In this document: piece by piece, positions 1,271-32,130 of the stretch | How positions within the stretch are numbered: the first letter of the stretch is position 1 | How the letters are laid out: each line of letters begins with the position of its first letter | Program-made: the position numbers and the translations under genes | From: Lama guanicoe | Taxonomy: Eukaryota | Reading direction: 5' to 3' | DNA: 64,000 nt | NCBI GenBank assembly: GCA_013239625.1 | Contig: MU053810.1 | Location: forward strand, 62,001-126,000 | The notes under the pieces: generated by a model | Database searches by the model: none | The model's input: the letters and a program-made list of their open reading frames with translations, nothing else | Told to the model about the DNA's origin: nothing

Positions 1271-2429
1271 TGTGTCTGAATTTTAAAATCATTCTTGGTT
1301 AGTAGTGGGTCACCAAGGAATTTAAAGAGGAGAAAGGAGATATAGATGACTTGTTGGCTAGGATCAGTCACCTATTGAATATAAGCCAGAGAGGCAAAAA
1401 GGACACCCCAGTTTGGTGACTTTAACAGCTCTCCCCCTGGTGGGATTTGCCGGCACCTCAAGGCATCTCTGAAGGCCTTCCTTCCTATTCCCCTCTCTGG
1501 AACCCCCTGCCCACCTGCCTGCTTCCTGGTGGAGACCCACTGGTCTGACCCAGGTCTGGTGCTCCTCATTTGGGCTCTTCTGGGACCCTGTGTGTCATGG
1601 AGACCATCTCTGCCTCCCAAAACTGCCTTCACCACTGAACAGTATGGGTGACTCCCTCTCCTTCAGCACACAGAAGCTTCTAGAACTTCAGGCTTACAGC
1701 ATCCTCTCCTCCTGTGCTCACTGCTACCCAAGGTCACTTCTGGATTCCCACTTCCTGGAACTGCAAATCCTCATTGAAAATCCCTGGCTCTTCTCATTTT
1801 ATTCTCCCCTCTTTTCCACGGTCCCCCACACTCTGGAGATCAATGATGAAAACATGTTTTGGAGAGTCTCACCCTCACACACGTACATGCACACACAGAA
1901 TGACACTCGGAGGAAGAAATTGGGGCCTTTTCAAGATTGGTACAAAGGCACAGAGGATTAAGAGCAGAAAAATGGATGTGCCCAGAGGACCCCCTGGTGG
2001 AGATCACTCCTGGCCATTCCATTTAACCTGTTCGCAGAATCATCTTAGTCTTAGGCTGAGTGACACGTGACAAGTTGGCTGCCATGGCAACACAGTTATC
2101 AATTCCTTATTGGCAGTGAGTTTTCACTTTGGAAAGCATTCTAGGATTTCTGCTTCAACCACAGGCACAAGAACCCTAAAGCCTAGCAGAGAAACGTAAC
2201 GAACTTCCTTCTGCTTGAAAGTCCTTGCAGCCGATCAAGACGCTTTTTGTATCCTAAGGCACACTGCATAGTGAGGTGGTTTAGAGACAGAGTCAGAAAT
2301 ATAGTGTCCAGCTCTTTGACTTCATTAAACATTTCAGGGGTTTGAGAAGTGTAGACCCAAGCCTGAAGGCTCTAGAGAATAAGTTATGGGCTGAAAAGCT
2401 AAGCAAGCTGTGAAGAAGTCATGTAGCTG

Positions 2430-2878
2430 GCTGGATAAGAGATGGCCTACTTAATGTATCCAGTGTGGATGGCTGTAGTGCCTATGATGGGAAAGATCCC
2501 CAGAGGAGGACAACCTAAGGCAGGAATGCACAGCTGGGTAAGAGATGGCCTATTTAATGTGTCCAGTGTGGATGGCTGGAGAGCCAACGACGGGTAGGAT
2601 CCTCAGAGGTGGACACTCTAAGGCAGGAACAGATGGCTGGATAAGAGATGGCCTAATCAATCTTTCCAATGTGGACGGCTAGAGAGCCAACGACGGGTAA
2701 GATCCCCCAGGAGGAAAAATTAAGTCCTAATTAAGTCAGGCACAGACAGCTGGATAAGAGATGGCCTTCGAAATGTAATCAGTATGGACGGCTGGATAGC
2801 CAACAACAGGTAAGATTCTCAGAGGAGGACAACCTAAGACAGGCACAGCCAGCTGGATAAGAGATGGTCTACTTAATG
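2430..2878 (+). repeat. Tandem array of 103-bp units (4 full + 1 partial) with CTE-like (NXF1/TAP-binding) hairpin motifs; probably an ERV2/betaretrovirus-derived remnant
   Basis: Units start at 2430, 2533, 2636, 2749 and 2852 (103/103/113/103 bp). The consensus includes GCTGGAGAGCCAACGACGGGTAAGA...AACCTAAGACAGGCACAGC. Confidence 0.85.
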
Positions 2879-3649
2879 AAGTTTTGTGACAAAATTTAAA
2901 ACAATCTGTCCTTGGTCATGTAACATCGTATAACATTACTGCAGAAATCTGGGAACCTGGAGCCTGGGAACATAAATGGCTTAAGATTATTAACATTGTT
3001 ATTACTTAGATGGTATGGGAGGCATCATGCATGTCCTATAGAACCCTTTTACAAGAATGGATAAACAGAGTAGCCAACAGCGCTCTCCAAATGCGGTGTG
3101 TATGTGTACCTGATACCGCGACACCGACAAGAAGCACTCTGAAAACTGGAAATTTTCATAGCCCAAGCTCATTACACCAGATGCTTAAAGCAGTAACTGA
3201 AATGATGCCAATTTTGTAGTATGAGACCAGTTTCCTTCAAGGTTCAAAACTGAGCTCATAAGTGAATCTCAGCTCAGACCTAAAGCGTCATCCGTCTATC
3301 GGAGGAAAGAAATTCCACTTTCCATTGGTTTCACTGCAAAGTGCAGCCGTTCCACGGGGTTGTGTACATTGCTGAGTTCACGTTCTTTATCAACATTTGC
3401 AAAGATACACACAGCAGAAGAGGTGTGTTCACGGACTGTATGCTTGGAGTCGTGTTGTCAACTTGTAAAGCTTAATGGATTAGTGCTTACTGGGTGCCCA
3501 CCGAGTTTCAGGCATGGAGTAGGGGTGCTGAGTGATGGACACTGGGGTTCAGACATCTAAGAGTAGAGGTGAGGGCAGGTGCACCCATGACCGTGGTGTA
3601 CCCCTAAGGTAAACCCATCTATGTACCTTATAATAAGATATAACGTAAT

Positions 3650-4050
3650 TGGCTTTAATTCTTGCCTCTGCAAGATAAATGCAAAAAGGGAGGTTCCAAG
3701 CACCAGGGGAGGCCAAAGAGGGTGGATTACATGCAGTCGAGGGACCCAGGATGGCTTTGTGAAGGTGGCATCAGAGACTGGCCTTAGAGAGGGTACCATT
3801 TAAGTGGTTGCGGGTGGGGAGACATGCCAGGTGAAGAAAGTGTCAGGAGTAAAGACTCCAGAAGTGATGGCTAGGGTGTGTTTAGGGGACGGTGAGACTA
3901 GTTCGGGGTGCCTGTAATTCTGTGATTATGAGAGAGTAATGATGTCACATCAGGAAGCTAAGTGAGGACCACCTCCTGGTGGGTTCTGGTTGGTTGCCTC
4001 TGAAGGTTTCTGAGCAGAGAAGTGACATAATATGAATGTGTCTTGGCATG
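3650..4050 (-). mobile_element. L2 LINE fragment
   Basis: Degenerate L2 motifs such as 'gacccaggatggctttgtgaaggtggcatcagagactggcctt'. Confidence 0.5.
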
Positions 4051-5244
4051 TATTTCCCAAGTAGGACAACAGATTCCTTTCTCTTCCAGGAGATTAAAGT
4101 CACAGACGGGCCCGTGGGTTGACGGTAGAAGCCCGTTCCAATCTGCTTTTGTCTACTTGGTTTCTTTCCTGTGTTTGAGGCTTACAGGGCCTCCAGATGA
4201 TCTCTTTCCCCCCACTGACTTTTCGAAATAAGTGATTTATTCTTCAAATCCATCAAAGGATTGTCTTTCTTATCTTGCTCACAAAGCAGGAGGGGAAGGA
4301 GAGGATGTCCTGTACATCGAACATTTGGCAAGTAGCAGAACAAGAGTATGTTTTCTGAGCCCAGAAGGCTCCGGGCTCCCCTTCTCGGCTGTCAATTGGC
4401 CTTTGCGGAATTGTCTCTTTCTGTGCATCCCCTACTGTGAGATGTGACATCTAAGTGGGCATGTTCTGCCAGACTCAGCCTAGGGAAGAGGTTAGAAATA
4501 GACGCTCCTGGGGTTCAGACAGCAGAGAGCCAGCCTCTCTCTTTCTACCACGTGCTGGGATGACGTAAACTCTCTGGGTTCCCACTGAAGGCAGAGGGTG
4601 AGGGGAGGGTGGAAGGGGGTGCGGTGGGAAGACGGAAATGAGAACGGGAAGGAAAGTGATGCAGAGAGAGGGAGCTGGGGTGGGAATAGCGCATCAGTAT
4701 CATCTTACAGAAGCAGCATGTCAGTTAGCATCTAATGCGGCTTTCCAGACGCTGGGCCCTGGACAAGGCTCTTTCAGAACTCACCTTCACCCCGGCAGTT
4801 AGATACAGCGGCTGCATTTTGTAAAGGGGTGCGTAGGCTCTGTGAGGTTCAGTCACCTGCCCAGGACCATGCATTTGCCCAGGGAGGTGCCGGGTTGCAT
4901 CCTGGGTTCCAAAGCATCTCCTGCCACAGAGGAGCCTAGAAAGAGGATGGAGGGTGGACGCAGGCTGGCCAGGAGGAGGCGCAGGGGTTTGCTCGGGACA
5001 GATCCTGAGCCTTCTAGGCACAGAGGTCCAGCCCGGGTCTGGAAGGAGGCCCCAAAGGTCATCAGAGAGGGGCCCCTTGGAGGCCCAGGGGTGTGGGCTG
5101 GTCACAGCACGGGCTCGATTCCCCAACATGGCCCCTGTGCAGAAAGTGAGGGACCATCTGGAGAAGCGGACCCCAGTTTGTAAGGGCAGGAGGAACAGAT
5201 GGGAGAAGGCAGGGTGGGGTGGAAACTCGTTAGGAAGTCCAAAG

Positions 5245-5370
5245 GGATGGCCTGGAGGCGGTGACGATGGCTCCACAGCTGTAGGAATGTGCTTAATGCC
5301 TAGAACTGTGCACTTAAAAGTGGGTAAATTTTGCATTCCGTATATTTTATCACAATAAAAAATTAGAAGA
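5245..5370 (+). mobile_element. Old L1 (L1M) 3' end fragment
   Basis: 'gtgcttaatgcctagaactgtgcacttaaaagtgggtaaattttgc...tatcacaataaaaaa' resembles an L1MB/ME terminus. Confidence 0.7.
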
Positions 5371-6039
5371 AAATAATGTGGCCTGGGCTTTCCCACTGGT
5401 GGGTCAAGTCTGCCAGTGGGCGGGGCTTCCTGGCTTCAAGGTCAATGAGAAGGCCCAGTGGGGATGTAAGGGGGCCCGGTTGCCCCCTCTGGGCTGACCT
5501 CACAGCAGACGTGCACACCCAGCCTCGGGGACAGGATCACAGCACAGAGGCAGCTCTGGCCACAGAGGATGTGTAACGTTTATGAGTCCAAAGGTCACCT
5601 TCCCAGGGACTAGAGTGGAATTTGATGTTCATTAACTGTGAGTTTTTAGAAGCCGAGCTGACGTCCTTCCTCACTGAAATTGCTTCCTTAATTCATTTTA
5701 AATTGAATATCTAGACTGCTCGCAAGTGGGATTAGGGGTGAGGATGAGGAGGCGGGCATCTGGAACTGTGGTTTTCAGTTTTCTTTTTCGGTAACTGAAA
5801 CCTCCAGGTCACAGGCGAATATCACCATGGGTAGTTTGCCCATTGTGGTTTTTTAAAAATTTTTTGAGAGGAGTTGGCAGGTGGTAGTGGTTCTGGGAGA
5901 AGAATGCCCTCGTGTGCTGCCGAGGGCCAGGGAGGGCCAGAGAGGGGCTTGAGGTCCCTGGAATCCTCCACTTGAGCTATTGGTTTGCAAATTAAACCTC
6001 CTTGTTTGAAGACTTGTCACAGAGCTTAAGGGTATGGGG

Positions 6040-6270
6040 CACAGCCTTAGAGGAGGGGTGGTCTGACTCCAAGTTCAAGCTCCATCATGTACCGTGGGGG
6101 CCTCGGGCAAGTTGCACTGGCTTTCTGACCTTCGTTTTCCTAATCTCTAAAATGGGACAAAGAATACCACCTACCATAGTCAAACGTCAGAACTGAATAA
6201 GAGGACGTGTCCAAGACAGGTAGCGTGGCGCCTGGCGCACAGTAGGTGCTTGGTAAATGGTAGTTACTGT
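6040..6270 (+). mobile_element. MIR SINE
   Basis: 'ctcgggcaagttgc...ttttcctaatctctaaaatggg...gcctggcgcacagtaggtgcttggtaaatggtagtta'. Confidence 0.75.
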
Positions 6271-6939
6271 TCTCACTCCAATGCCAGAATCTAGGAAAGA
6301 TAAAGTCCCAAGGATGGGGATCTTGGTGCATTGGGGAAATAACTGCCCCCTCCCACAGCCGTGAACCAGCTCCACCAGGTCATGTCTGTTGGCCCCAGCT
6401 GGTTACATGCTTAGCAATGGCTCCTTCATGACTGCAGTTGGGAAGCTGGTGACCTGGCGGCTTAGTCTAGCTCTGATCAAGTTCACCCGCCCTGTCCTGA
6501 GCCTGGCTTTTCTTCCCTAAAATGGCAACTGCGTCGTCTCTGTAACTCCTCCAGGGCAAGGGCTTAATCGTAGCATGGCTCCCTGGGGGCCAGTGCCCTG
6601 GGTGCTCCGTGGGACTGTGGGACTAAGCTGTGCCGAGCTCCAGGAGGAACCACATGGCACCAACACGTGTGCAGGAGAAATGCACCCCAGGAGCTGATCA
6701 TCCCTTCAGAGAGTATGGCTTTAGTAACACTTACTGATTTGTAGTTGCACAAGTGACACATGCATGGATGCGGCATTGGTATAAAAATGTAAGCACTATA
6801 AATAAAAACACAGCTTCCTTTAAGCTCCGAGTCCCAGGCCCCTCCCCAGAGGCAACCAATTAACAGTCAACATCCTTCCAGTTCCTGTTTTATGGTGTAT
6901 TGCAAGAAAGAGGCAGTGAAGCACTGTTAAGTCAAGCTG

Positions 6940-7150
6940 ATTATGCTGTTGGGGGTACAAGCAGGGTGCTGAGATGGTCATCAGGGGAGGCTACTGACCC
7001 AGTGGTAAGGAAAGACATCAAGGAGGTAACATAGGACCCAGCAGAATGGGAATGAGCTTGCTGTGCAGTCATGGAACAGCATTCTAGGAAGCTGGAACAG
7101 AAACTTGTTGAAGAGGTGGCTAGGAATAACATGTTGTTTGTATAATGGGA
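6940..7150 (-). mobile_element. L2 fragment
   Basis: 'gtggtaaggaaagacatcaaggaggtaacat...aacagcattctaggaag'. Confidence 0.5.
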
Positions 7151-10100
7151 CAGTAATGAAGACATATTTAAATTTTCTTCTCACAGCTTAATAACCCATT
7201 TTTCATTTGTTGTAAGAGTCCATCTATAACCATACACTGGGTAGGATTCTGTAACCTAAAGCCTTTCACATGTAAGCTTTGCCCTGACTATGTTTTTGAA
7301 ACTTTCAAATTTGCAAGGCCTTGTGCTAGATCCCCAGCCAGGAAGGACGGCCCTTGAAAGTTGGCAGAAACACATCACTGTGCTCTAGTCTCTGTCATCT
7401 GTGGTTTAAAGGTTTTCCAGTGATATTTTTACCTATTAACTGAGAACTGATTCTGAGGCATGGGCTCGTGGACTGAGCTTGGCAGTAGGTCATTGTAACA
7501 GTCAACTTGTAGTGACTGATGGCTTCCCAAGTACCTCTGTGCCCCGTCTCACAGTATCAGTATCTCCACTTTCTGAAAGAAGGAAAAACAGCTGTGTGCC
7601 TGGAGCCGGGCCTGAAGCCAGCTCTCCCTAATACCACCCCTAGCTCTTTCTCCTCTAAGGACAGACAGCTCCCAGGCTGCCTGTCCTGATTCAGTAGCAG
7701 AAAAGCCTGTATCTGGGTTTGGTAAAGTCTCCCCAGCAGACAGACCCTGAGCCGTCACGCCCTGGATGTGGCCGTGTGGACAAGTCACCAGTCTCTGGGA
7801 AGTAAACAGAGTGCTCACAGCTCATAAATCTTTGTCACATTCCACAGTTGGGCAGGGCAGGTGGCAGGAGGAGCCCTTTGGGGTTTTCAGCCAGTAGTGA
7901 GGATGCCAGGAAAACACATCAGCCATCAGGAGGAAAAGGAGAGCCTGGCCCTTAGCTGCCCCTTTCAGGAGAAGGACTGGAGACTGAATACTGAACCATC
8001 AAAACCCATGAGTGTGAAAGGCCCCAGGGAACCGAGCCTCGGACCTGAGACTGTTCAGGCCACCGGTGCCTATGGAGAGAGAGCCGGGCAGAGCAGGCCG
8101 GCTTGCCTCTGGGCCAGTTTCTGCTCTAGGCTTCCCTTCTTCAGTGGGCCCTGGCGGTCCATGGTTCAGCCTCCCCACTCAGCATCCTTACTCGGATGCC
8201 TGAAATTAGGGGGGCTGCCTTTAGGTCACCCTGGACCAAGTTCAGAGGTCCACAGGGTGGGGGGAAGCTTCAGCCTGGCCTACTGTTCCCTTGGCAACAG
8301 CAGTGATCCGAGGCCTGGAGCTTAAAGAGCCGATCGGTGGCTCCATGCACCCCACCCAGCAGTGGTCGGCACACCCAGGGCTGGGAGGGGGACAGGAATG
8401 AACTTGGCCTCCATCCCCCATGGTAGCACATCTGGCAACTGCTGGTCTTGGAGGAGGCACCACGCCATCAGGCCCTCTCATTCCTCCTCTCCCATAGCCC
8501 GAGATGCCCTGGAGGCCAAGCACACCCACCAGACAGCCAGTGGACAGCGCTTTAAAAAATCTTGGAGGTTCCAGTGACCATGAACCACACCTGTGCCTCT
8601 GAAGGGAATTCCTGCATGAGCAAGTCTGTCGTGGGTCTGTCTCCCTCCCTCTGTTTTCATGGGAGAGGATCCCAGCCCTGCCTGGGACTGGCTGACTCGG
8701 GACTGAGATGCCCAAGGAGGCTATGACCAAACATTTAGAGGCATTAGCTGTTGGAAGATGTCCTTCAGAGGCTAAAACTGAGGTTGAGGGAGAACCATGA
8801 TTCTCCAAGGTCAGCAGCACACCAGTGGCAGAGTTGGAAAACCTTTAAACCACTGATGCCAGCAGTCTGGAGGGAATTTCTGGGAATCTGGAAAAAAAAA
8901 ATCACAGCCTCCTTCCCACTTGACCTGCACCCATTTTCTCCACTGCACCCTGGAAAGTGCCCGGGAGCAATAAGAGGAGCTAGCAGCCTCTTACCCAAGG
9001 ATCTGTGAGTTCAGTTTCATCTCCCTTGGTAGATCTGGAAAAGCCTTGGGGGTTGGAAACGGCATTCCATGGCCTATCGTCTCCCAGTCTCCCATCCATC
9101 CTAGACAGTGGAAATGAGGTTGGCAGAACTACTGGGGAGATACAGATTCCCCCACAGGAAGCTCAGAACGTAGACTGAAATATCATAGAATGGGACAAGT
9201 TGAGTTCCCATCAGCAAAGTCCACATGCACATAACTGAGTGATTAATATTTTTCTAGCTTCCTAGAATATATATATGGGTGTGTGTAAATATATGAAATC
9301 TGTATCTATATAGATACATGTATAGAGAGAGTTTGTACTGGGATGCAATGAGGAAATTTACTTATGAATGAGTGGTAATTAAAATATTAATTACCTACAA
9401 TATTTCTTTGCAAAGTTCCTGAATCCCTAGGCTCATGATGCCATTTTCAACCATAACATTAAAGGACTTTGTTAACGGACACTGGGAAGAAGCCCCAGGG
9501 ACAGGGCAGCAGGCTGCTCAGGGCTGAGGGGACTGGCCGGGGCTCTGGCTGCCCCCAGGCCGGAGAAGATGGGCCTCTCCCCATGCTTGTAGTTCAGTTC
9601 TTGCTGCCTGTTGCAGGGCTCTGCCCTAGTCAGGTGAGGATGAGTGTAAAAACAGAGGTTGATTTAACGCAGGATCAAAGTGCATGGCTGAGAGGTTAAT
9701 GAGAATTAAGTCAAAGAGCAGACATAGTGTGCAGAATTTTTGTACTTTATTTGACCCAAAAAAAAAACCCTTTTGTTTGCACGCCAGTATCTCATGGGCT
9801 GAGTGTTAGGTGGACTTCAGTCTGGCAACACTTTCTAGTGCATTTATCTAAAGATGTAACTTTCTTTCTCTGTACCGGAACATAACCGATAAACTCCCCT
9901 TTCTGTGACGGCAGGGAATGGACAAGGCCATGAGGTCTTTTCCTGGCTTTAATCATCATCTATTAGGGAGTTAAGCCTTGGCCGTTTAAGACCCTGTGCT
10001 CCTTTTCTTGGCTTTCTGGAGTCTTTCTGAAATGTGGTCTGTCTCCTGAATTTACCTGGGTTTCCTGTAACCCCGCATCCCCTCTCTGAAATTCAGTCCT

Positions 10101-10374
10101 TCCTCCTCTCCATCACGTCCTGCAACTCTGTAGATCTGGCTCAGAATACACAAAATAACCCTGTCAGCTGAGCCTGGGAGAGCATCAGAAAGGAAAGTGC
10201 ACTCAGTTCAAGATCCTTAAAGCCAGTTCCTGATCTGACCAGAACAGAGGAGTCAGAATGGACTTGGGGCACAGAAACTCCACAAGGATCCCAGTGAACC
10301 CAGCCCCCGCTTCCCAAAGGCAGCCCCTGCTTCTCCATTCGTTGTCTGCTTTTAAGTCCCTGAACTTGTTTCAG

Positions 10375-10700
10375 CCTTTCATTTATCAAGTGCTTTCTGC
10401 ACACCAGGTGCTGGATAAACAGATGTAAAGATGGAACCCTTGCATTTATTTGAGAGCTTACAGTCCAGGAGAGAGTCAGATGCACAATGCGATAAACTTG
10501 ACAGTAGAATTAGGGAAAGATTACCTGGCTCTTCCTGGAGGAATCAGGGAAGGCTTCACAGAGGAGGTGACCCTTAAACCCAGACTTGGAGAATAAGTAG
10601 AATTCTGTCGGTTGGATAAAGATGTGAGGAGTGGTTGGCAGAGATGTTCTCAGCAGAAGGCACAGATACTTGAGAGCGCCCAGTGTGGTTAGGGAGTAGC
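10375..10700 (-). mobile_element. L2 3' end
   Basis: 'atttatcaagtgctttctg...gagcttacagtccagg...gaatcagggaaggcttcacagaggaggtgac'. Confidence 0.75.
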
Positions 10701-10759
10701 AGTTCAATCAGGAAAGTGCAAATTCAGGATGAATAACAAGTCAGAAAGCTTCATTTCTT

Positions 10760-10980
10760 GTTTTCTGTGTGTCAGGTGCTATGTCATGTGCTTTACATCC
10801 ATTACCTGGTTTTATTCTGCAGAGCAGGTCTATGGCAGAGGCATTATTTTCCCCACTGGGTAAATGAGGAGGGTGAGCTAAGGCAGCTTCCCGGACGTGG
10901 GCGAGGCCTGCTGTCAGATGATGGAGCAGCGGGGATGCAATTCCAGTTTTGCCTGGTTCTGAAGCCCAGGCTCCTGCCTG
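10760..10980 (-). mobile_element. MIR SINE
   Basis: 'gtgtcaggtgctatg...gtgctttacatcc...attttccccactgggtaaatgagg'. Confidence 0.6.
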
Positions 10981-12059
10981 GGATGCCAGGTGGCCTCCTG
11001 CTTGTCTGGGGACAGTGGGGACAGAAGCAGGAAGGCGGGGGAGCCCTTGAGCCAGCACTGCCCAGTGGGACCAGGACTCCCACCCCAGCTCCGTCCCAAC
11101 CTTCTGCCTGCCTGCCTCCCACCTCCACACCCCTCGCCCTCAGCCACAGCCTGGCTGGGGCATTTGCTCTCCCTTCCGCCAGGCTCCCGGCTCAGGGAGA
11201 CAATGCTCTGACTTCGGGTGGAGCAAAGGGCCCAATGCCAGGTCAAACACAGTCCTAGGAACCCCAGGTGGCTTCTCCAGAGAGTCCTCAAAAGAACTGC
11301 CCTGCTGTCACTCCTGTGGTTTGGGAGTTTTTTTCGGTAGCTCTGGGCGTCTTCCCAATGGTTCCCATTTAGGAAACTATTCTGCAGTGGCTTGGCTCTG
11401 CTGCCTGCCCCCTCACCCCCCCTCCTCTCTAAAAGGGCAAAAACAATGGTGGGACAAGGAGAGACAGGGCCAGAGGGAGCTGGAGAGAACTCAGGGCGAG
11501 GCCAGTGGGCTGAGCATCGTCCCCCTCCACAGAGAATAAAGGGGTCTTGGCCTGTGGCCTTGACTGGGACAGAAGACACGATGCCAGTGTATACTGCTCA
11601 GAACTGGCAGACGGTGTGGCCGAGGGCCACCTGAGAGCCTGTCTGCTGAGAGGGGATGTCTTTGGCCAGTGCACGTTGGGAGGTTCTAGGAGGCTTAGCT
11701 TATCAGTGTCACTGGGGAAGCACTTGAAAAACCAGCAGATAATCACTTTGGAAAGAGCGGTTTTGTGGACCTCCACCTGGAGGTTTGAAATTGGCAGTAG
11801 TCCGTTGAGTCCAAGGATTCTTGACAAGAATCATTGGGAACCTGAGCTCTGACCAGGCAGCCCAGAGCCGTCATCACGCATCGCTGGGCAAGGGGAGGGG
11901 GGCAGTCAGGGTCTTGGGAGACTCTGGGACCCGGTGCTCTTCCCATCTTTCATCCTCCTTCATTCATTGTTGCTGTTTTCTCTCCAAACTCTTACATCCA
12001 GTCGTCTGCTGTTGCCTTTGTGTCTCTGTTTGCCTCGAGCCCCTCTCAAGATTAGGCTT

Positions 12060-12263
12060 CCAGAGTTTTTTCCTACAAAGGGCCAGATACTAAATATTTT
12101 AGGCTTTATGGGTCAGCCTGTGTCATAACTACTCAACTCGGCCACAGTAGCAGGAAAAGAGCCACAGACCACATGTCAACAAAGGAAGGTGTTTGTGGCC
12201 GTGCTCCAATAAAATTTTATTCACAAAAACAGGTGGCAGGCCAGATTCGTTTGCTCACCTCTG
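12060..12263. mobile_element. MER58-like hAT-Charlie DNA transposon
   Basis: 'aagggccagatactaaatattttaggcttt...ccaataaaattttattcacaaaaacaggtggcaggccagatt'. Confidence 0.85.
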
Positions 12264-14185
12264 TTCTCGATTTCAGTATTTTTCTTTTCTTCTTTCTTTC
12301 TTTGAATCTCAAGTACAGTGAAGTGTTAAAAAGGGAAGCTATTGGTCAGTGTTGCCGCTTTGGGACTTGCCTCATTTTTAACATTTTGGAAAGTGCACGC
12401 TGTCTTGTCTTTATAGGTGGCTCTTTAAATTGAAAGCAGCTGTGAAGGCAAGAATTCTTTCAGTGAGCATTTGGTATGTCTGCTGCCGTGAAATAGTCAT
12501 TTTTAATACACTGTTTTTTTCTTAAGGTAGATAGAGAGCTTACTGGTGTCCTGCGGAAGAATTCAGGCAATCTTTCTGCCCCATACAGTGCCAGGCACAG
12601 TGCGAGAGACGCGTCTTGCTGGAATGAACGAACATTTGGAGGTGGAAGCTGTTAAGAAATGATTTCCTTAATCATTTAGAGATGATGCTCTATTGTACAT
12701 GGATTCTATATGGTAACATGAGTAAAGTTCCTTAACTTTTCAAGATCTTGATTGTGAAAGTTTCACACAGCACCAGGGATTCCTGGGGAGAGGTGGACAC
12801 ATGGGAGGGTTTTAGGTAGAGCGCAGGTGAGACACTCTCATGGGTTTGTCCTGTCATTGGAGGCAGGGGACCACCCAAAGGTCACACTGAGATCACTCGG
12901 CCTCACAGATGCATAAACATCCCTCTTGGCATCTTTCCTCGTCGGCCTGTGGTCATGAGGGTTCAGGATTAACTAGTGATCAGTCTTGTGGTTCATGGTG
13001 GCTGGGCAGAACCACCAGACTCATCCTCCCCCCGCTTCCATCAAAATGCTCCATGGAAGTGTACAAAAACAAATATCTAGAAAATAATGATGATAAAATA
13101 GCAAAGGGAAAAAAATTAGAGCAGAAAATCTAATAATGGCGTGAGTCTAACTTTGTTCAAATATGTGTGTATACCAATAGAAATGATCCTCGGAAGAAAT
13201 ACATTAATGTCAACAGTAGCCATTTCTGTGCAACAGAATTGCAGATGATCTTGTCCTTTTTTTGTCCCATAATTTTTAAATGCTTTTCTATAATAAAATA
13301 TGTTGCTTTTAGAGTTTAAAAAGGTTTCTACTTTGAAAAGAGAAAGAATGGGGACCCCAGCCTACAGTTTGTCTTACTGAGAATAAGAGGGCAGGCTCCC
13401 CTGTGACAGTCGTCCCATCCACCCTGAAGCAGTGGCGCTTTCTAGAGAAGGGGGGCTCGGCCACGGGCAGATGCTGGGCCTCTGACAGGCACGTGCTTTC
13501 TCCTCCGTAGCCAGTCAGAGCTGGTGTGATGTCCTGACAGTGGGGCTGCCTACTCGGACTTGGTTGTTTTGAGGTTGCCCAATACGATCATTTGCTTCTC
13601 TTTGGTTCTTCCTCAATGCCTGTTTCAGCTTGGCCGGGCCTGTCCCCCTCCTCTTCTCAGCCTACTGTAAAGTGTCACAAAGCTAAATGAGCAAGTGTGT
13701 TGTCTTTATCTATATTTTAAAAGCAGTTTCTAAAGAGATTGATTTCATTTGGAAAGCATTCCAGACAAAGGATGGTTTTTTAAAGAAACACATGTATTAG
13801 AAAGCACAGCTCTCATGGAGAAATTCTCACTTTCTTAAGGGGTGATGGCCAGGATGCAGGAGGCTTCTCTGAGATGCCGGTGACTATGGCTTCATCATTT
13901 TATGGGGTTAGCCTCTTATTCCCAGGGCCTGAGTCCTCCCTACCTGCAGGCATAGCCCACTTCCCACAGAGATAAAGACATTCTGCCCGGCCAGGGGTTC
14001 TGGGTCACAGCTTTGCTGTTGACATTGGACAAGTTAAGAGTCCTTCTGTGTCTCTCTGCTCCAAATCAAACCCTACCCATGTCAGAGAGGCTGTGGGGTG
14101 GAGAGTGACATAGTCCCTAAGGAACTCCAGTCAGACCACTCATCCCATCTTAATAACTACCGCCCCCCACCCCCCACCTCCCCAT

Positions 14186-20294: not shown

Positions 20295-20570
20295 CTCATG
20301 TGCTCCTCGGTGCAGAAGGCCCTGTTTGAGGAGGAGGACCGCGTCAAGAAGCTGCAGCAGAAGGTGGCCACCCTGGAGAAGCGGAACAGGCAGCTGCGGG
20401 AGCGGGTGAAGAAGGTGAAGCGGTCCCTGCGGCAGGCGCGGAAGAACGGCCGCCACCTGGAGCTGCTCAACCACAAGCTCAGCGAGAAGCTGGTGGCCGC
20501 AGCGGGCGCGCTTCCACACATCAACGCCCTGGGGCGGGAGCCCGCGGGGGCCCCCTACCTGCGGGGCTAG
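20295..20570 (+). CDS. CCDC3: CCDC3 (coiled-coil domain-containing 3 / favine) terminal coding exon, 91 aa + stop
   Basis: A polypyrimidine tract and cag acceptor end at 20294 (phase 0). The exon translates LMCSSVQKALFEEEDRVKKLQQKVATLEKRNRQLRERVKKVKRSLRQARKNGRHLELLNHKLSEKLVAAAGALPHINALGREPAGAPYLRG*, matching the CCDC3 C-terminal coiled coil as I recall it. Codons are strongly GC3-biased, and the tail-to-tail arrangement with CAMK1D matches known synteny. Confidence 0.97.
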   Translation, partial: LMCSSVQKALFEEEDRVKKLQQKVATLEKRNRQLRERVKKVKRSLRQARKNGRHLELLNHKLSEKLVAAAGALPHINALGREPAGAPYLRG

Positions 20571-27110: not shown

Positions 27111-28098
27111 GTTAAAGTATCTGCTGAATCCCTGAGAAGTAACCAGAATAAAAGGTCTTCAATGGAAAAAAAAAATCATTTTTGGGTTATCTAGACACTA
27201 TTTCTCCAGGGAGGGGATTATAAAGACTTTTGCTTCTCTCCTGCCTCTTCGCCCCTGTTGCCACCCCCTTGGTGTCTGCAAAACTTGTTGTCTTTGGCAG
27301 CAGAGGTTGAACACACTGGAGGGTGAAGCCCTGTGGGTTTGTCTGCTACTTTCTCTGGCTTTTGCTTAAGGCTCAGAGATGAGGCTGAACAAAGAAACTG
27401 AAATGAAACTTTCTGATTATCTGTGTTTTTCCAATTAATCCTGCACCCCACTAAGGGATCATAAGTTGGCTTCAACACTCTGTCCCTAAGAGATGAATCT
27501 TCATTTGCCAGATGGCTGGGCATCAACTGGATGGCCTGGCATTTCATTTCTTCCTGTCCAGTAAAATGAGAAAATTCAAACCAGACACTGAAACGTCCTA
27601 TTTTCTTTCATTAAAAACATTTCTTAATGGTGTCGCTGGGCACTCTGAGAGTGAACTTCAATGTTTCTGAACCTCTGAATGCTGGAAACAGGGATAAAAC
27701 TGCCATTCTAAAAGTGCCAGACAGTTACATAATATGACTCTGAACTACTGGTTCTCAACTCTGCCAGCATATTAGGAACAACTGGGGAGATATGAATTAA
27801 GGATGCCTGCCATCTGCCCCCTTATTATCCCAGTGGGGCGCCAGCATCAGTATTAAAAACAAAACAGACCACATCAAACCAAAGCAAAACAAAACACCTT
27901 CCATGTGATGAGAATATGCAGTAAGGACTGAGAAGTCACTGCTCTGAGGGTAAAAGAGGTTAACCATCTTCAGAATAAACATTTTATTCTAGGAGAGATT
28001 ATTTTGAGGAGCCCCTTTGTAAGAAGAGATACTTTGAGGTACTTGGAGCACCTCTGAATATTGGCAAACTGATCCAAATGCAAATAGTTTAGACAGAT

Positions 28099-28720
28099 AT
28101 GTTAGCTATCCATTGCTGTGTAACATAATACCATGAACTTAGCAATAACTGTGTCATTGCTCATAACTTAGTGAGATAACATGTGCGTTCCAGTGCCTTA
28201 AAGCAAGATACACTTACTATCTCGCAGTTTCTGTGGTCAAGAGTCTCAGCATGGCTTAGGCTGAGCTCTCTGCTTCAGAGTCTGTCACAAGGCTGTAATT
28301 GAGGCGTTGGCCGGGGCTGGGGTCTTATCTGAAGGCTTGACTTTATTTTTAAGCTCACATGATTATTTGTAAGACTGGTTCCCTACAGGCTCTTGAACTG
28401 AGGTCCTTAGGTCCCAGCTGGCTACTGACTGTTGGCTGGAAGTTGCCCTCAATTCCTTGCCACGTTGGCTGCTCCAGCCTGACTGTTTACTTCATCAAAG
28501 CACACAAGCCAAGAAGGCAATGGAGAAAGTCTGCCAGTGACATGTAAGTTACAGTCTTACGTAATCTAACCTGGAAAGCGATACCCCATCCACTTAAAAT
28601 GTTCCATTGGTCAGAATCAAGTCACAAGTCCTACACACATGCAAAAGGAGGGCATCACAAAGGAGGAGGTCAGTACCAGGAGCTGGGGAACTGTGGAAGG
28701 CACCTTAGTCTTCCTGCCTC
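28099..28720 (-). mobile_element. MLT1 (F/G-like) MaLR LTR
   Basis: 'tgttagctatccattgctgtgtaaca...ctcgcagtttctgtggtcaagag...ggggctggggtcttatctgaaggcttgact...ccattggtcagaatcaagtcac'. Confidence 0.75.
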
Positions 28721-30400: not shown

Positions 30401-32130
30401 CGCGTTCTCTGCTGCCATCCAGGACCTCCGGGCAAACTCCCGGTGATGGAGAGAATGCTGCCCAAGCAGAGGGCTTTCACTGTGAAAGGCAAGCCCGCAG
30501 TGCTGAGTTCTAGTCTTGTTCCTCATAAATGTTTTCTCTACTGCTGTGGATATGGTTTAGCTTCTCTGTACTACTTTTCCTGTCAGTAAATTTTAAAATC
30601 AATCAAGCTGTTATCTTTATATCTATATTTGCTTTCCAACAGAGCCCCTGGAAAACACATCAAAAGTTTTTTGTTTTTTTTTTAACACTTGCTCAAGTAC
30701 ATGGGTCTCTTCCAATGGGCAGTTCTACCTACAGCCCACCTTGTTTGCAGGCAGCACTTAAAACTGGCTTTCTTTGTGAAGTGATTTTACTTTGGATCCC
30801 CCAAGGAGTTTTTAACTTGGAATTAATAACTCAGACCCAAGTGTTTAGTTTGGAAGACAGAGGTTATTGTAAATCTCTGAGTTCCCCAATCCACGGCCAA
30901 GTGGAAAGTTTTTCTAAGCATCAGCTGGAGGGAGGGGCCAGCCTAGCCCTTTCCCAGCTCTCTTCCAGGTAACCCCTGTCAACGGCTCAGAGGCACAAGC
31001 CTTTCACACCCACCTAGTCTGCCTACTTGCCAAGAACTCCACAGCCCGGGGAATTCCAAGAAGAAAACAACACATCAGTTTGAGAGATGGGTTTTTTTTT
31101 TAATCTCCATAAATTATTTTCTTGTTTTGATCATGAGCATCACTGCTGAGCAGAGTATGTGTCCTGCCACCACTCCAGAATTTTCAACCTATCTGTCATC
31201 CACCCGAGCAAGCAGTGTGAGGCTGGGTCTTCAGCAACCTTCCCTCATCTGCACACCTTGATGGATGGCCCACCAGCAGCCTGTAGCGGGGTCACTGCTA
31301 GTGGGGGCAGGAAACCTTGGGGGTGGGGGAAGCTACACCTGGCTTTCAGCTGAGAAAGAGCAGGAAATAATGGGAGGATTCCCCCACAGTCCTAACCCCC
31401 ATCCCAGAGAACCTATTTCTACTTTTAAAATTCTAAGTCTGTTATGGTTACACATGTTTCTAACCCATTCTGCTGGCCACTTTAAATGTTTACTTTTGCA
31501 CTGGGACTTTCAAAGATTGGATGACCTTTTTTTTTTCTTTTTTTTTTTTGGAGGGTGGTGGTGGGGAAAAAAGGAACATTATATCCCACAAAGCCCAGCA
31601 CGCCACATGTAGCCACACAGCATTTCCCAAACAACTGTTCTTACATCTCCAAGGAGAAGGCTCTACTCACAACTACTTTTTACCATTTTGGTGTCAGATA
31701 CCAAGTGCTAACAAGCCAACGGGTTGTATACATCATGTGCTTTCCCTTTTTTGCTCTCAAACCATCAGATATCAGCAAGGTTTTGGCAGCTCCTCTTTCC
31801 TGGAAACTCAGGCTGCAAAGATGTAAGGCTTCCCTTTTCAGATTTTCCCTTCCAAAATACTGGGATTGATACAGACAGATGTTTCCAGCACTTCATCACA
31901 CTGGTTAGTGAGGAAACAAGTTTTTCATCAGACCAAAATGAGGCATCAACAATATTTCAAAAGAAGAACCAATTCTAGTATCTCCCTGCATAGATCATGG
32001 CTTCTCGCAAGCTATGAACTCTGACCTCCACTAGAGTAATGAAAATTTGACAGGTTTTCCCTTTGCCTTCATACCTCCCTATTGGTCAATTCACATGCTT
32101 CATTTAATACTCTTAAGAATACCCTTTAGT

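Follow-up and report, generated by a model that had tools for sequence, protein, structure and literature searches.

A tandem array of CTE-like units in the last CCDC3 intron of Lama guanicoe is a decayed and locally expanded part of a betaretrovirus-like solo LTR

Analysis of a 64,000-nucleotide stretch of the Lama guanicoe genome (GenBank assembly GCA_013239625.1, contig MU053810.1, positions 62,001 to 126,000 of the forward strand; this whole stretch is called the window, and positions are counted from its first nucleotide) revealed that a 103-bp tandem repeat in the last intron of CCDC3 is an ordinary relic, namely a solo LTR that was expanded locally and has decayed. A history that we consider highly probable is that part of U3 grew in place from ~1.3 to 4.3 copies within a sense-oriented solo LTR. 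The repeated unit would have been a viral constitutive transport element (CTE) module and would now be a neutral relic without a demonstrable host role.

Tandem Repeats Finder placed the array at 2430–2878, with a period of 103, 4.3 copies, 76% matches and a score of 465, and a repeat search gave copy-to-copy spacings of 103, 103 and 113. The third unit (2636–2748) was 113 bp long as the result of an internal duplication of roughly 10 bp. Both analyses agreed, also in position, with the original prediction, which had described four units and a partial fifth, one of them 113 bp long. A second hairpin that had been described in the spacer was also real, as the 8-bp inverted repeat GCTGGATA/TATCCAGT was present when unit 1 was folded. 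The array was composed as follows:

2430–2878, + strand: tandem array of the U3 unit (Tandem Repeats Finder and repeat spacing)
2430–2532, + strand: unit 1, member of the array
2533–2635, + strand: unit 2, member of the array
2636–2748, + strand: unit 3, 113 bp, member of the array
2749–2851, + strand: unit 4, member of the array
2852–2878, + strand: partial fifth unit of 27 bases, member of the array

A DNA search of the source assembly (2.05 Gb in 55,231 contigs, in which the window is C1724:62001–126000) gave 491 first-look candidates; 40 were scored, with 54 matches listed, and 16 loci were taken for alignment. Many among the matches listed covered only the last unit, with 87–92% identity. 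Alignment of the window with the 16 loci (blastn and MAFFT) showed that the homology with the dispersed copies extends beyond the array, from approximately 2350 to approximately 3130. This region has the ends TGTAG...CGACA, which are of the TG...CA type, and is bordered on either side by AGAAG. The array had been regarded as an orphan with no LTR alongside; this was incorrect, as it sits within an LTR (2350–3129) with a 5-bp target-site duplication, and its location is the U3 of this solo LTR. The features of the LTR were:

2345–2349, no strand: target-site duplication AGAAG, 5′ copy (read directly)
2350–3129, + strand: solo LTR of betaretrovirus-like ERV family A, 780 bp (blastn/MAFFT against 16 dispersed copies)
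2350–2429, + strand: 5′ part of U3, before the repeat (79–85% match to other LTR copies)
3037–3043, + strand: degenerate remnant of the TATA box (TATAGAA; other copies have TATATAAA)
3060–3065, + strand: degenerate remnant of the polyadenylation signal (GATAAA; the family has AATAAA)
3130–3134, no strand: target-site duplication AGAAG, 3′ copy (read directly)

The LTR of family A contains a TATATAAA box and AATAAA, both of which are mutated in the window copy. Target duplications of 5 bp were found in nine of the 17 copies examined, the rest being proviral, nested, truncated, masked or unclear. Typical family A copies are ~461 bp long and contain one unit and a 27-nt partial unit (~1.3 units), whereas the window copy is 780 bp long because the unit is present 4.3 times. 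The 3′ part of the window LTR was 78–88% identical to the other copies, which indicates that the insertion is old.

The position of the LTR relative to CCDC3 was determined from the following exon:

20296–20570, + strand: last coding exon of CCDC3 with the stop codon (splice acceptor, open frame)

This exon showed 94% identity to named CCDC3 proteins and a CCDC3_C match of 0.96 (Atlas). Exons 1 and 2 of CCDC3 were found upstream of the window on the + strand of contig C1724, at 28059–28499 and 31193–31414. With the last exon downstream and exons 1 and 2 upstream on the same strand, the LTR lies in sense in the last intron (~51 kb), and the orientation given by the original prediction, sense to the CCDC3 pre-mRNA, was correct. 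Partial CCDC3 protein matches, some with stops, were also seen at G000:C4751:825709–825903 and C7234:47239–48270; these are possibly pieces of a paralogue or pseudogene.

The units had been attributed to a betaretrovirus-like ERV, and a search for the parent element and its dispersed copies had been suggested. The LTR family was recovered from the assembly itself by blastn and MAFFT, and some of its loci are proviral. A primer-binding site follows the 5′ LTR in L021, L029 and L070, and a polypurine tract precedes the 3′ LTR in L070, L067 and L033/L034. In the L067 provirus, which has LTRs at 67–530 and 4460–4904, a single frame encodes both dUTPase and retroviral protease; the provirus also encodes RT, an RT thumb domain and a GP41-type transmembrane protein. 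L070 is a provirus of a second LTR family (B), with LTRs at 1066–1515 and 7075–7526 and genes for dUTPase-protease, RT, RNase H and integrase. Between the two LTRs of a provirus, 27 of 443 aligned positions differed in L067, and 17 of 450 differed in L070. The closest solved structures were retroviral dUTPase, protease and integrase entries, which we take to be those of M-PMV and MMTV. The order dUTPase-protease is the betaretroviral arrangement, so the betaretrovirus-like origin holds; together with RT, integrase, primer-binding site and polypurine tract in the proviruses, it bears out the attribution. The LTR comes from a dispersed betaretrovirus-like ERV family.

The primer-binding site of the proviral loci is presumably complementary to tRNA-Trp. 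The family therefore pairs 5-bp target duplications with a primer-binding site that is presumably that of tRNA-Trp; betaretroviruses usually have 6-bp target duplications and a tRNA-Lys primer.

The identity of the unit was considered against the CTEs of type-D retroviruses (MPMV/SRV), to which the original prediction had likened it; by RNA hairpins of this type unspliced RNA is exported in these monkey viruses and from the cellular NXF1 gene. When viral contigs were scanned for a 15-mer taken from unit 4, 30 loci were obtained. Two of these, L062 and L063 (on contigs of 8126 and 8557 nt), contained the end of env, two direct repeats, a polypurine tract and an LTR. Both are type-D retrovirus CTEs, as they match the SRV-1 half-CTE primers printed in PMC4330393. 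Of the 13 other papers listed by a motif search of the literature, none concerns retroviral LTRs, as judged by title or abstract. The family unit agreed with the type-D element at 22 of 23 positions near the 5′ loop strand and at 20 of 21 near the 3′ loop strand.

A covariance model, R1, was built from 44 units at other loci, with the window excluded, and was run over 88,443 bases. Units 4, 1, 2 and 3 of the window scored 101.4, 63.3, 62.2 and 40.0 bits, respectively, and the best match elsewhere in the 64-kb window scored 11 bits. The two type-D loci were matched with 28.2 and 27.2 bits (E-values of 2e-4 and 4e-4), their second repeats more weakly. The best of the 28 other viral loci, which share the same exact 15-mer and served as a control, reached 15.4 bits (E 0.26). 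The covariance-model search that had been proposed as a check thus gave significant CTE matches with a model free of the window, and the likeness to the MPMV/SRV element was upheld. An Rfam search of 2000–3400 returned only sub-threshold chance matches; it is uninformative on CTE identity, since the true type-D CTE loci likewise had no CTE family match.

Both loop strands were present, with few changes, in 44 of the 44 aligned family units. One of them, AAGACA, is described as the conserved internal-loop word of the CTE in PMC4330393. When the genome was searched with a two-motif pattern that fixes the two loop strands only, 162 matches were found, against none for the reversed pattern used as a control; two long arrays held 35 of the 100 pattern matches listed.

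The type-D CTE and the ERV unit have in common, in their predicted folds, the GCC/GGC and GGGU/ACCU helices and the AAGA bulge. Both have the sense orientation and belong to the 3′ untranslated sequence of a betaretrovirus-type genome, and each of the two direct repeats of the type-D CTE can be aligned to the ERV unit. The type-D CTE, however, forms a single long hairpin in which two loops are arranged with two-fold symmetry, whereas the ERV element is a single-loop hairpin. The former lies upstream of the polypurine tract and the latter downstream of it, inside U3, and their apical parts are unrelated in sequence. The ERV unit therefore does not have the two-loop MPMV/SRV architecture; one loop per unit is the architecture of the cellular subtype.

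The host NXF1 locus was found through the Tap-RNA_bind family, and 10 kb of it was examined. R1 gave one strong match there, which was intronic and in the sense of the gene (55.1 bits, E 7.9e-12). The core of the unit was identical to this element at 59 of 68 positions in family A and at 57 of 68 in family B, compared to 65–74% identity of either family to the type-D repeats. Outside this 68-nt core, LTR and intron were not homologous. A likeness to the NXF1 intronic CTE, also put forward by the original prediction, was thus confirmed by R1 and by the identity to the genome's own element. Judged by sequence, the unit is truly related to both the MPMV/SRV-type CTE and the NXF1 intronic CTE, and its closest relative is the host's own NXF1 element.

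The NXF1 element and the ERV unit each have one internal loop and a short apical hairpin of near-equal length, and the outer stem word of the NXF1 element is identical in family B. They differ in that the former is in a host intron and the latter in the U3 of a retroviral LTR, dispersed in hundreds of copies. They also differ in the loop word before GACGGG, which in the ERV reads as in type-D and not as in NXF1. The unit agrees with NXF1 at the apical hairpin and the GGCACAG word, and with the type-D CTE at the word before GACGGG and the CAGCC word. Li et al. reportedly described, in 2006, a cellular CTE in a retained NXF1 intron. Cellular CTEs have one loop and require tandem duplication for high reporter activity, according to Wang, Rekosh and Hammarskjold 2015 (PMC4338338).

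A 633-bp stretch, L080 836–1468 (G000:C5323:389836–390468), was 96.4% identical to the CTE-bearing segment of the NXF1 intron. It is on a separate contig, with no Tap-RNA_bind match nearby; a segmental duplication, a retrocopy that retained the intron or a duplication in the assembly could account for it.

The array could also be explained as an ordinary minisatellite that carries CTE-like words by chance. The window contained no more than two occurrences of the 12-mer (with up to one mismatch), a number that 6 of 100 shuffles reached as well; this would fit a chance occurrence and is weak when taken alone. Against it are the reciprocal model matches to the type-D CTEs and the NXF1 intron, the identity at 59 of 68 positions to the NXF1 element, the 162 genome matches against none for the reversed pattern, and the retroviral context. 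On the R1 matches, the NXF1 identity and the pattern counts, chance-minisatellite identity was rejected; we regard it as refuted, with a probability close to nil.

The structure of the unit was predicted from the 44 aligned units with RNAalifold. This gave an outer stem, the GCC/GGC helix, a 6x6 internal loop, the GGGU/ACCU helix, a 5-nt AAGAU bulge and an apical stem of 4–5 bp. A typical family unit folded into the same shape (z −3.30, with none of 200 shuffles as good), and the same hairpin module was present in the predicted folds of both type-D loci. The pairing scheme of the original prediction was therefore correct for the family unit and for unit 4 of the window (RNAalifold/RNAfold) but not for units 1–3, the z-scores of which were approximately zero.

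Within family A none of 18 pairs showed covariation, because the copies are 95% alike. The loop-strand pattern, however, revealed the second LTR family (B), in which the apical stem reads CCCC/GGGG instead of the CCUC/GAGG of family A. The loop strands of family B are invariant by construction, as both were required by the search pattern, and the stems were free to change. What the two families have in common is the element (87% over 69 nt), a short 5′ block and R-U5 (85% over 67 nt). Elsewhere U3 has diverged, and the element is its best conserved block. Pairs were counted in an alignment fitted to the model, which comprised 23 hits (20 distinct) and included one NXF1-derived and two type-D rows. 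In this alignment 92.4% of cells were paired and five pairs had changes on both sides, a number reached by none of 500 shuffles. Between the families, three of the four pairs of the apical helix carried changes on both sides, and all cells (100%) were paired. The suggestion to look for compensatory changes was thus borne out between LTR families, in the apical helix, but not within family A.

Conservation within family A was compared by region in 13 of the 16 copies, leaving out L022 (a run of N), L030 (truncated) and L034 (a duplicate of L033). The half-CTE was 97.0% conserved, compared to 93.9–94.8% for other parts of U3, although this difference is biased as the loci had been chosen by a match to the unit.

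The element lies ~90–190 nt inside U3, and the polypurine tract is directly before the start of the LTR (L070 and L067). R1 found no match outside the U3 position in L069, L070 or L071, each of which has a pair of LTRs. All viral RNAs carry transcribed U3 at their 3′-end, so that the element would be in sense in both genomic and spliced RNA. A natural two-unit copy folded as two separate hairpins (z −6.36) and not as the two-fold symmetric hairpin of type D. In typical family A LTRs, as folded for L024 (2999–3134, minus strand, 136 nt; z −2.72, one of 200 shuffles as good), pairing between the 27-nt repeats on either side of the half-CTE can extend the stem to a hairpin of ~110 nt, which has the NXF1-type loop close to its tip.

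Tandem repeats in U3 are classically enhancers. The function selected in the virus could accordingly have been at the DNA level, with the unit acting as a U3 enhancer repeat and its likeness to the CTE being a leftover of its origin. The location in U3, ~230–330 bp upstream of the TATA box, would suit this, as would the variable copy number, which is also seen in retroviral enhancer repeats. However, RNA pairing in the apical stem is maintained by two-sided changes across the LTR families and the NXF1 copy, the loop strands are identical to those of elements known to bind NXF1, and it is the element that is best conserved in U3 between the two families. We therefore consider an enhancer function in place of RNA export unlikely; the two roles are, in any case, mutually compatible.

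In the window, the half-CTEs of the four units have fared differently:

2463–2537, + strand: half-CTE of unit 1, decayed (AAGGCA; four changes in the 5′ strand; R1 63.3 bits, 6 non-pairs)
2566–2640, + strand: half-CTE of unit 2, decayed (AAGGCA; stems broken; R1 62.2 bits)
2669–2753, + strand: half-CTE of unit 3, 3′ strand destroyed (substitutions and duplication; R1 40.0 bits, local end only)
2782–2856, + strand: half-CTE of unit 4, fold and AAGACA 3′ strand intact (R1 101.4 bits, E 4.6e-22)

The loop word AAGACA has become AAGGCA in units 1 and 2 and AAGTCA in unit 3. The folds of units 1–3 were no better than those of shuffled sequences (unit 1, z 0.00, 91 of 200 shuffles as good; unit 2, z −0.10; unit 3, z −0.33). 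Unit 4 folded into the shape of the family unit, with a minimum free energy of −23.5 kcal/mol and a z-score of −3.57 (none of 200 shuffles as good), and carries two G>A changes at CpG sites in its 5′ loop strand. As unit 4 keeps the fold and the AAGACA strand, residual binding of NXF1 by this unit is possible. The damaging AAGGCA and other changes are common to units 1 and 2, which shows that an already damaged unit was duplicated.

In the RNA libraries, the assembled contigs provided only repeat unitigs of 31–60 nt on the LTR, and its flanks were without cover. None of the assembled contigs bridged the LTR into the unique flanks, which has no bearing on the transcription of this copy. Unitig depths of 1,400 to 13,700 were seen at 2809–2862, the conserved 3′ half of the hairpin, in four RNA-labelled libraries; over the remaining LTR the depth was near or below ~190 in every RNA run and mostly far lower. 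The depth at 2809–2862 is a family-wide signal or DNA carry-over and is no evidence for this locus. Upstream in the intron, positions 1000–1884 were matched by one contig of 2023 nt from RNA library X3, with 33 differences and 4 gaps, the source of which is probably a related organism or an allele.

The original prediction had raised the possibility that the array is an export cassette captured by the host: NXF1 would be drawn to the CCDC3 pre-mRNA, and RNA that retains or derives from the intron would be exported. The LTR is indeed intronic and in sense to CCDC3, and unit 4 folds like a family unit and retains the AAGACA strand. In reporters, moreover, tandem single-loop CTEs outperform one copy, as stated in PMC4338338. 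Three of the four units, however, are broken, having lost both the fold and AAGACA, and in the fourth two changes affect a strand that does not vary among the NXF1, type-D and ERV copies. In addition, a damaged unit was duplicated, the same expansion arose independently in other LTR copies, and the element was brought in with an ordinary solo LTR. Capture by the host is thus very improbable, and the proposal is not supported. The alternative offered with it, a decayed relic, is what the loss of fold and AAGACA in units 1–3, the duplication of a damaged unit and the independent expansion of other copies point to.

This expansion was examined across the LTR copies. The half-CTE of family A is flanked by a 27-nt direct repeat, which includes the GCTGGATA/TATCCAGT inverted repeat. 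Arrays other than that of the window were all embedded in LTR copies and contained the following numbers of units:

L018 and L020: 2 units each
L002: 4 units
L017: 4 full units and one partial unit
C2563:15510500–15512175 (15.51 Mb): 16 units
C8976:110554–112428: 18 units, in a two-unit higher-order pattern
C2563:13506819–13508828 (13.5 Mb): 20 nearly identical 99-bp units

The similarity between units was highest within the same locus, and no unit-by-unit correspondence was found between the window and the multi-unit copies L002 and L017. The expansions were therefore local and independent, and nothing in the comparison with L002 and L017 pointed to a virus in which four units were already present. 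In the three longest arrays, which make up loci L003–L016, the CTE module has seeded minisatellites, the U3 unit having grown to 16, 18 and 20 tandem units.

The in-place expansion and decay that we favour would have proceeded as follows. A betaretrovirus-like ERV would have inserted, in sense, into the last intron of CCDC3, leaving a solo LTR. The 103-bp module in the viral U3 would have encoded a single-loop CTE hairpin with an NXF1/TAP-binding internal loop, and, as transcription of U3 takes place at the 3′-end, all viral transcripts would have carried this hairpin there. By homology, the module most likely recruited NXF1-NXT1, exporting unspliced viral RNA without a Rev-like protein. Slippage or unequal exchange at the 27-nt flanking direct repeat would have produced LTR copies with 1 to 20 units. 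In the window, the expansion would be old and the sequence would since have drifted neutrally, with three hairpins lost and the fourth left with two loop-strand changes.

Other elements of this kind are known. Zolotukhin et al. are said to have reported, in 2001, Tap-binding elements in the human genome. CTE-type Tap-binding motifs have been described in endogenous betaretroviruses of bats (Hayward et al. 2013, PMC3621094). There, the motifs were sought within and downstream of env, whereas here the element is in U3, has a single loop and is nearest to the NXF1 copy. The MER11 (HML-8 LTR) CTE of SERV-K/MER11 (PMC11379458) resembles the present element as an export element in the LTR-derived 3′-end of a betaretroviral RNA, and the HERV-K RcRE as an RNA export element in U3, at the 3′-end of a betaretroviral RNA. 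These two differ in being ~1 kb long or Rec-dependent, and in the available text of PMC11379458 they are not described as homologues of the MPMV/NXF1 CTE. In the literature searched, no earlier report of an NXF1-type CTE in a retroviral U3 was found.

The locus itself is of little weight, and the array can be masked as an LTR-derived minisatellite. The interest for follow-up is in the family, a betaretrovirus-like ERV with an NXF1-type CTE in its U3, by which U3 would, from the homology of the element, join the known places of NXF1-dependent export signals. Wang et al. (PMC4338338) state that, in sequence searches, CTEs were found in the NXF gene family only, and argue that a retrovirus took the element from the cell and then duplicated it. 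An ERV with the cellular single-loop CTE in its U3 may be the intermediate, long postulated, between the cellular and the duplicated two-loop form, or may represent an independent second capture; we put this forward tentatively and doubt it slightly more than we believe it. If it is true, the tandem multiplication of the unit in the LTR copies replays the duplication step proposed for the viral CTE by Wang et al. (PMC4338338). With an LTR family whose element is of the unduplicated cellular type, is 84–87% identical to host NXF1 and occurs naturally in 1–20 units, the idea of capture and duplication becomes testable with natural sequences.
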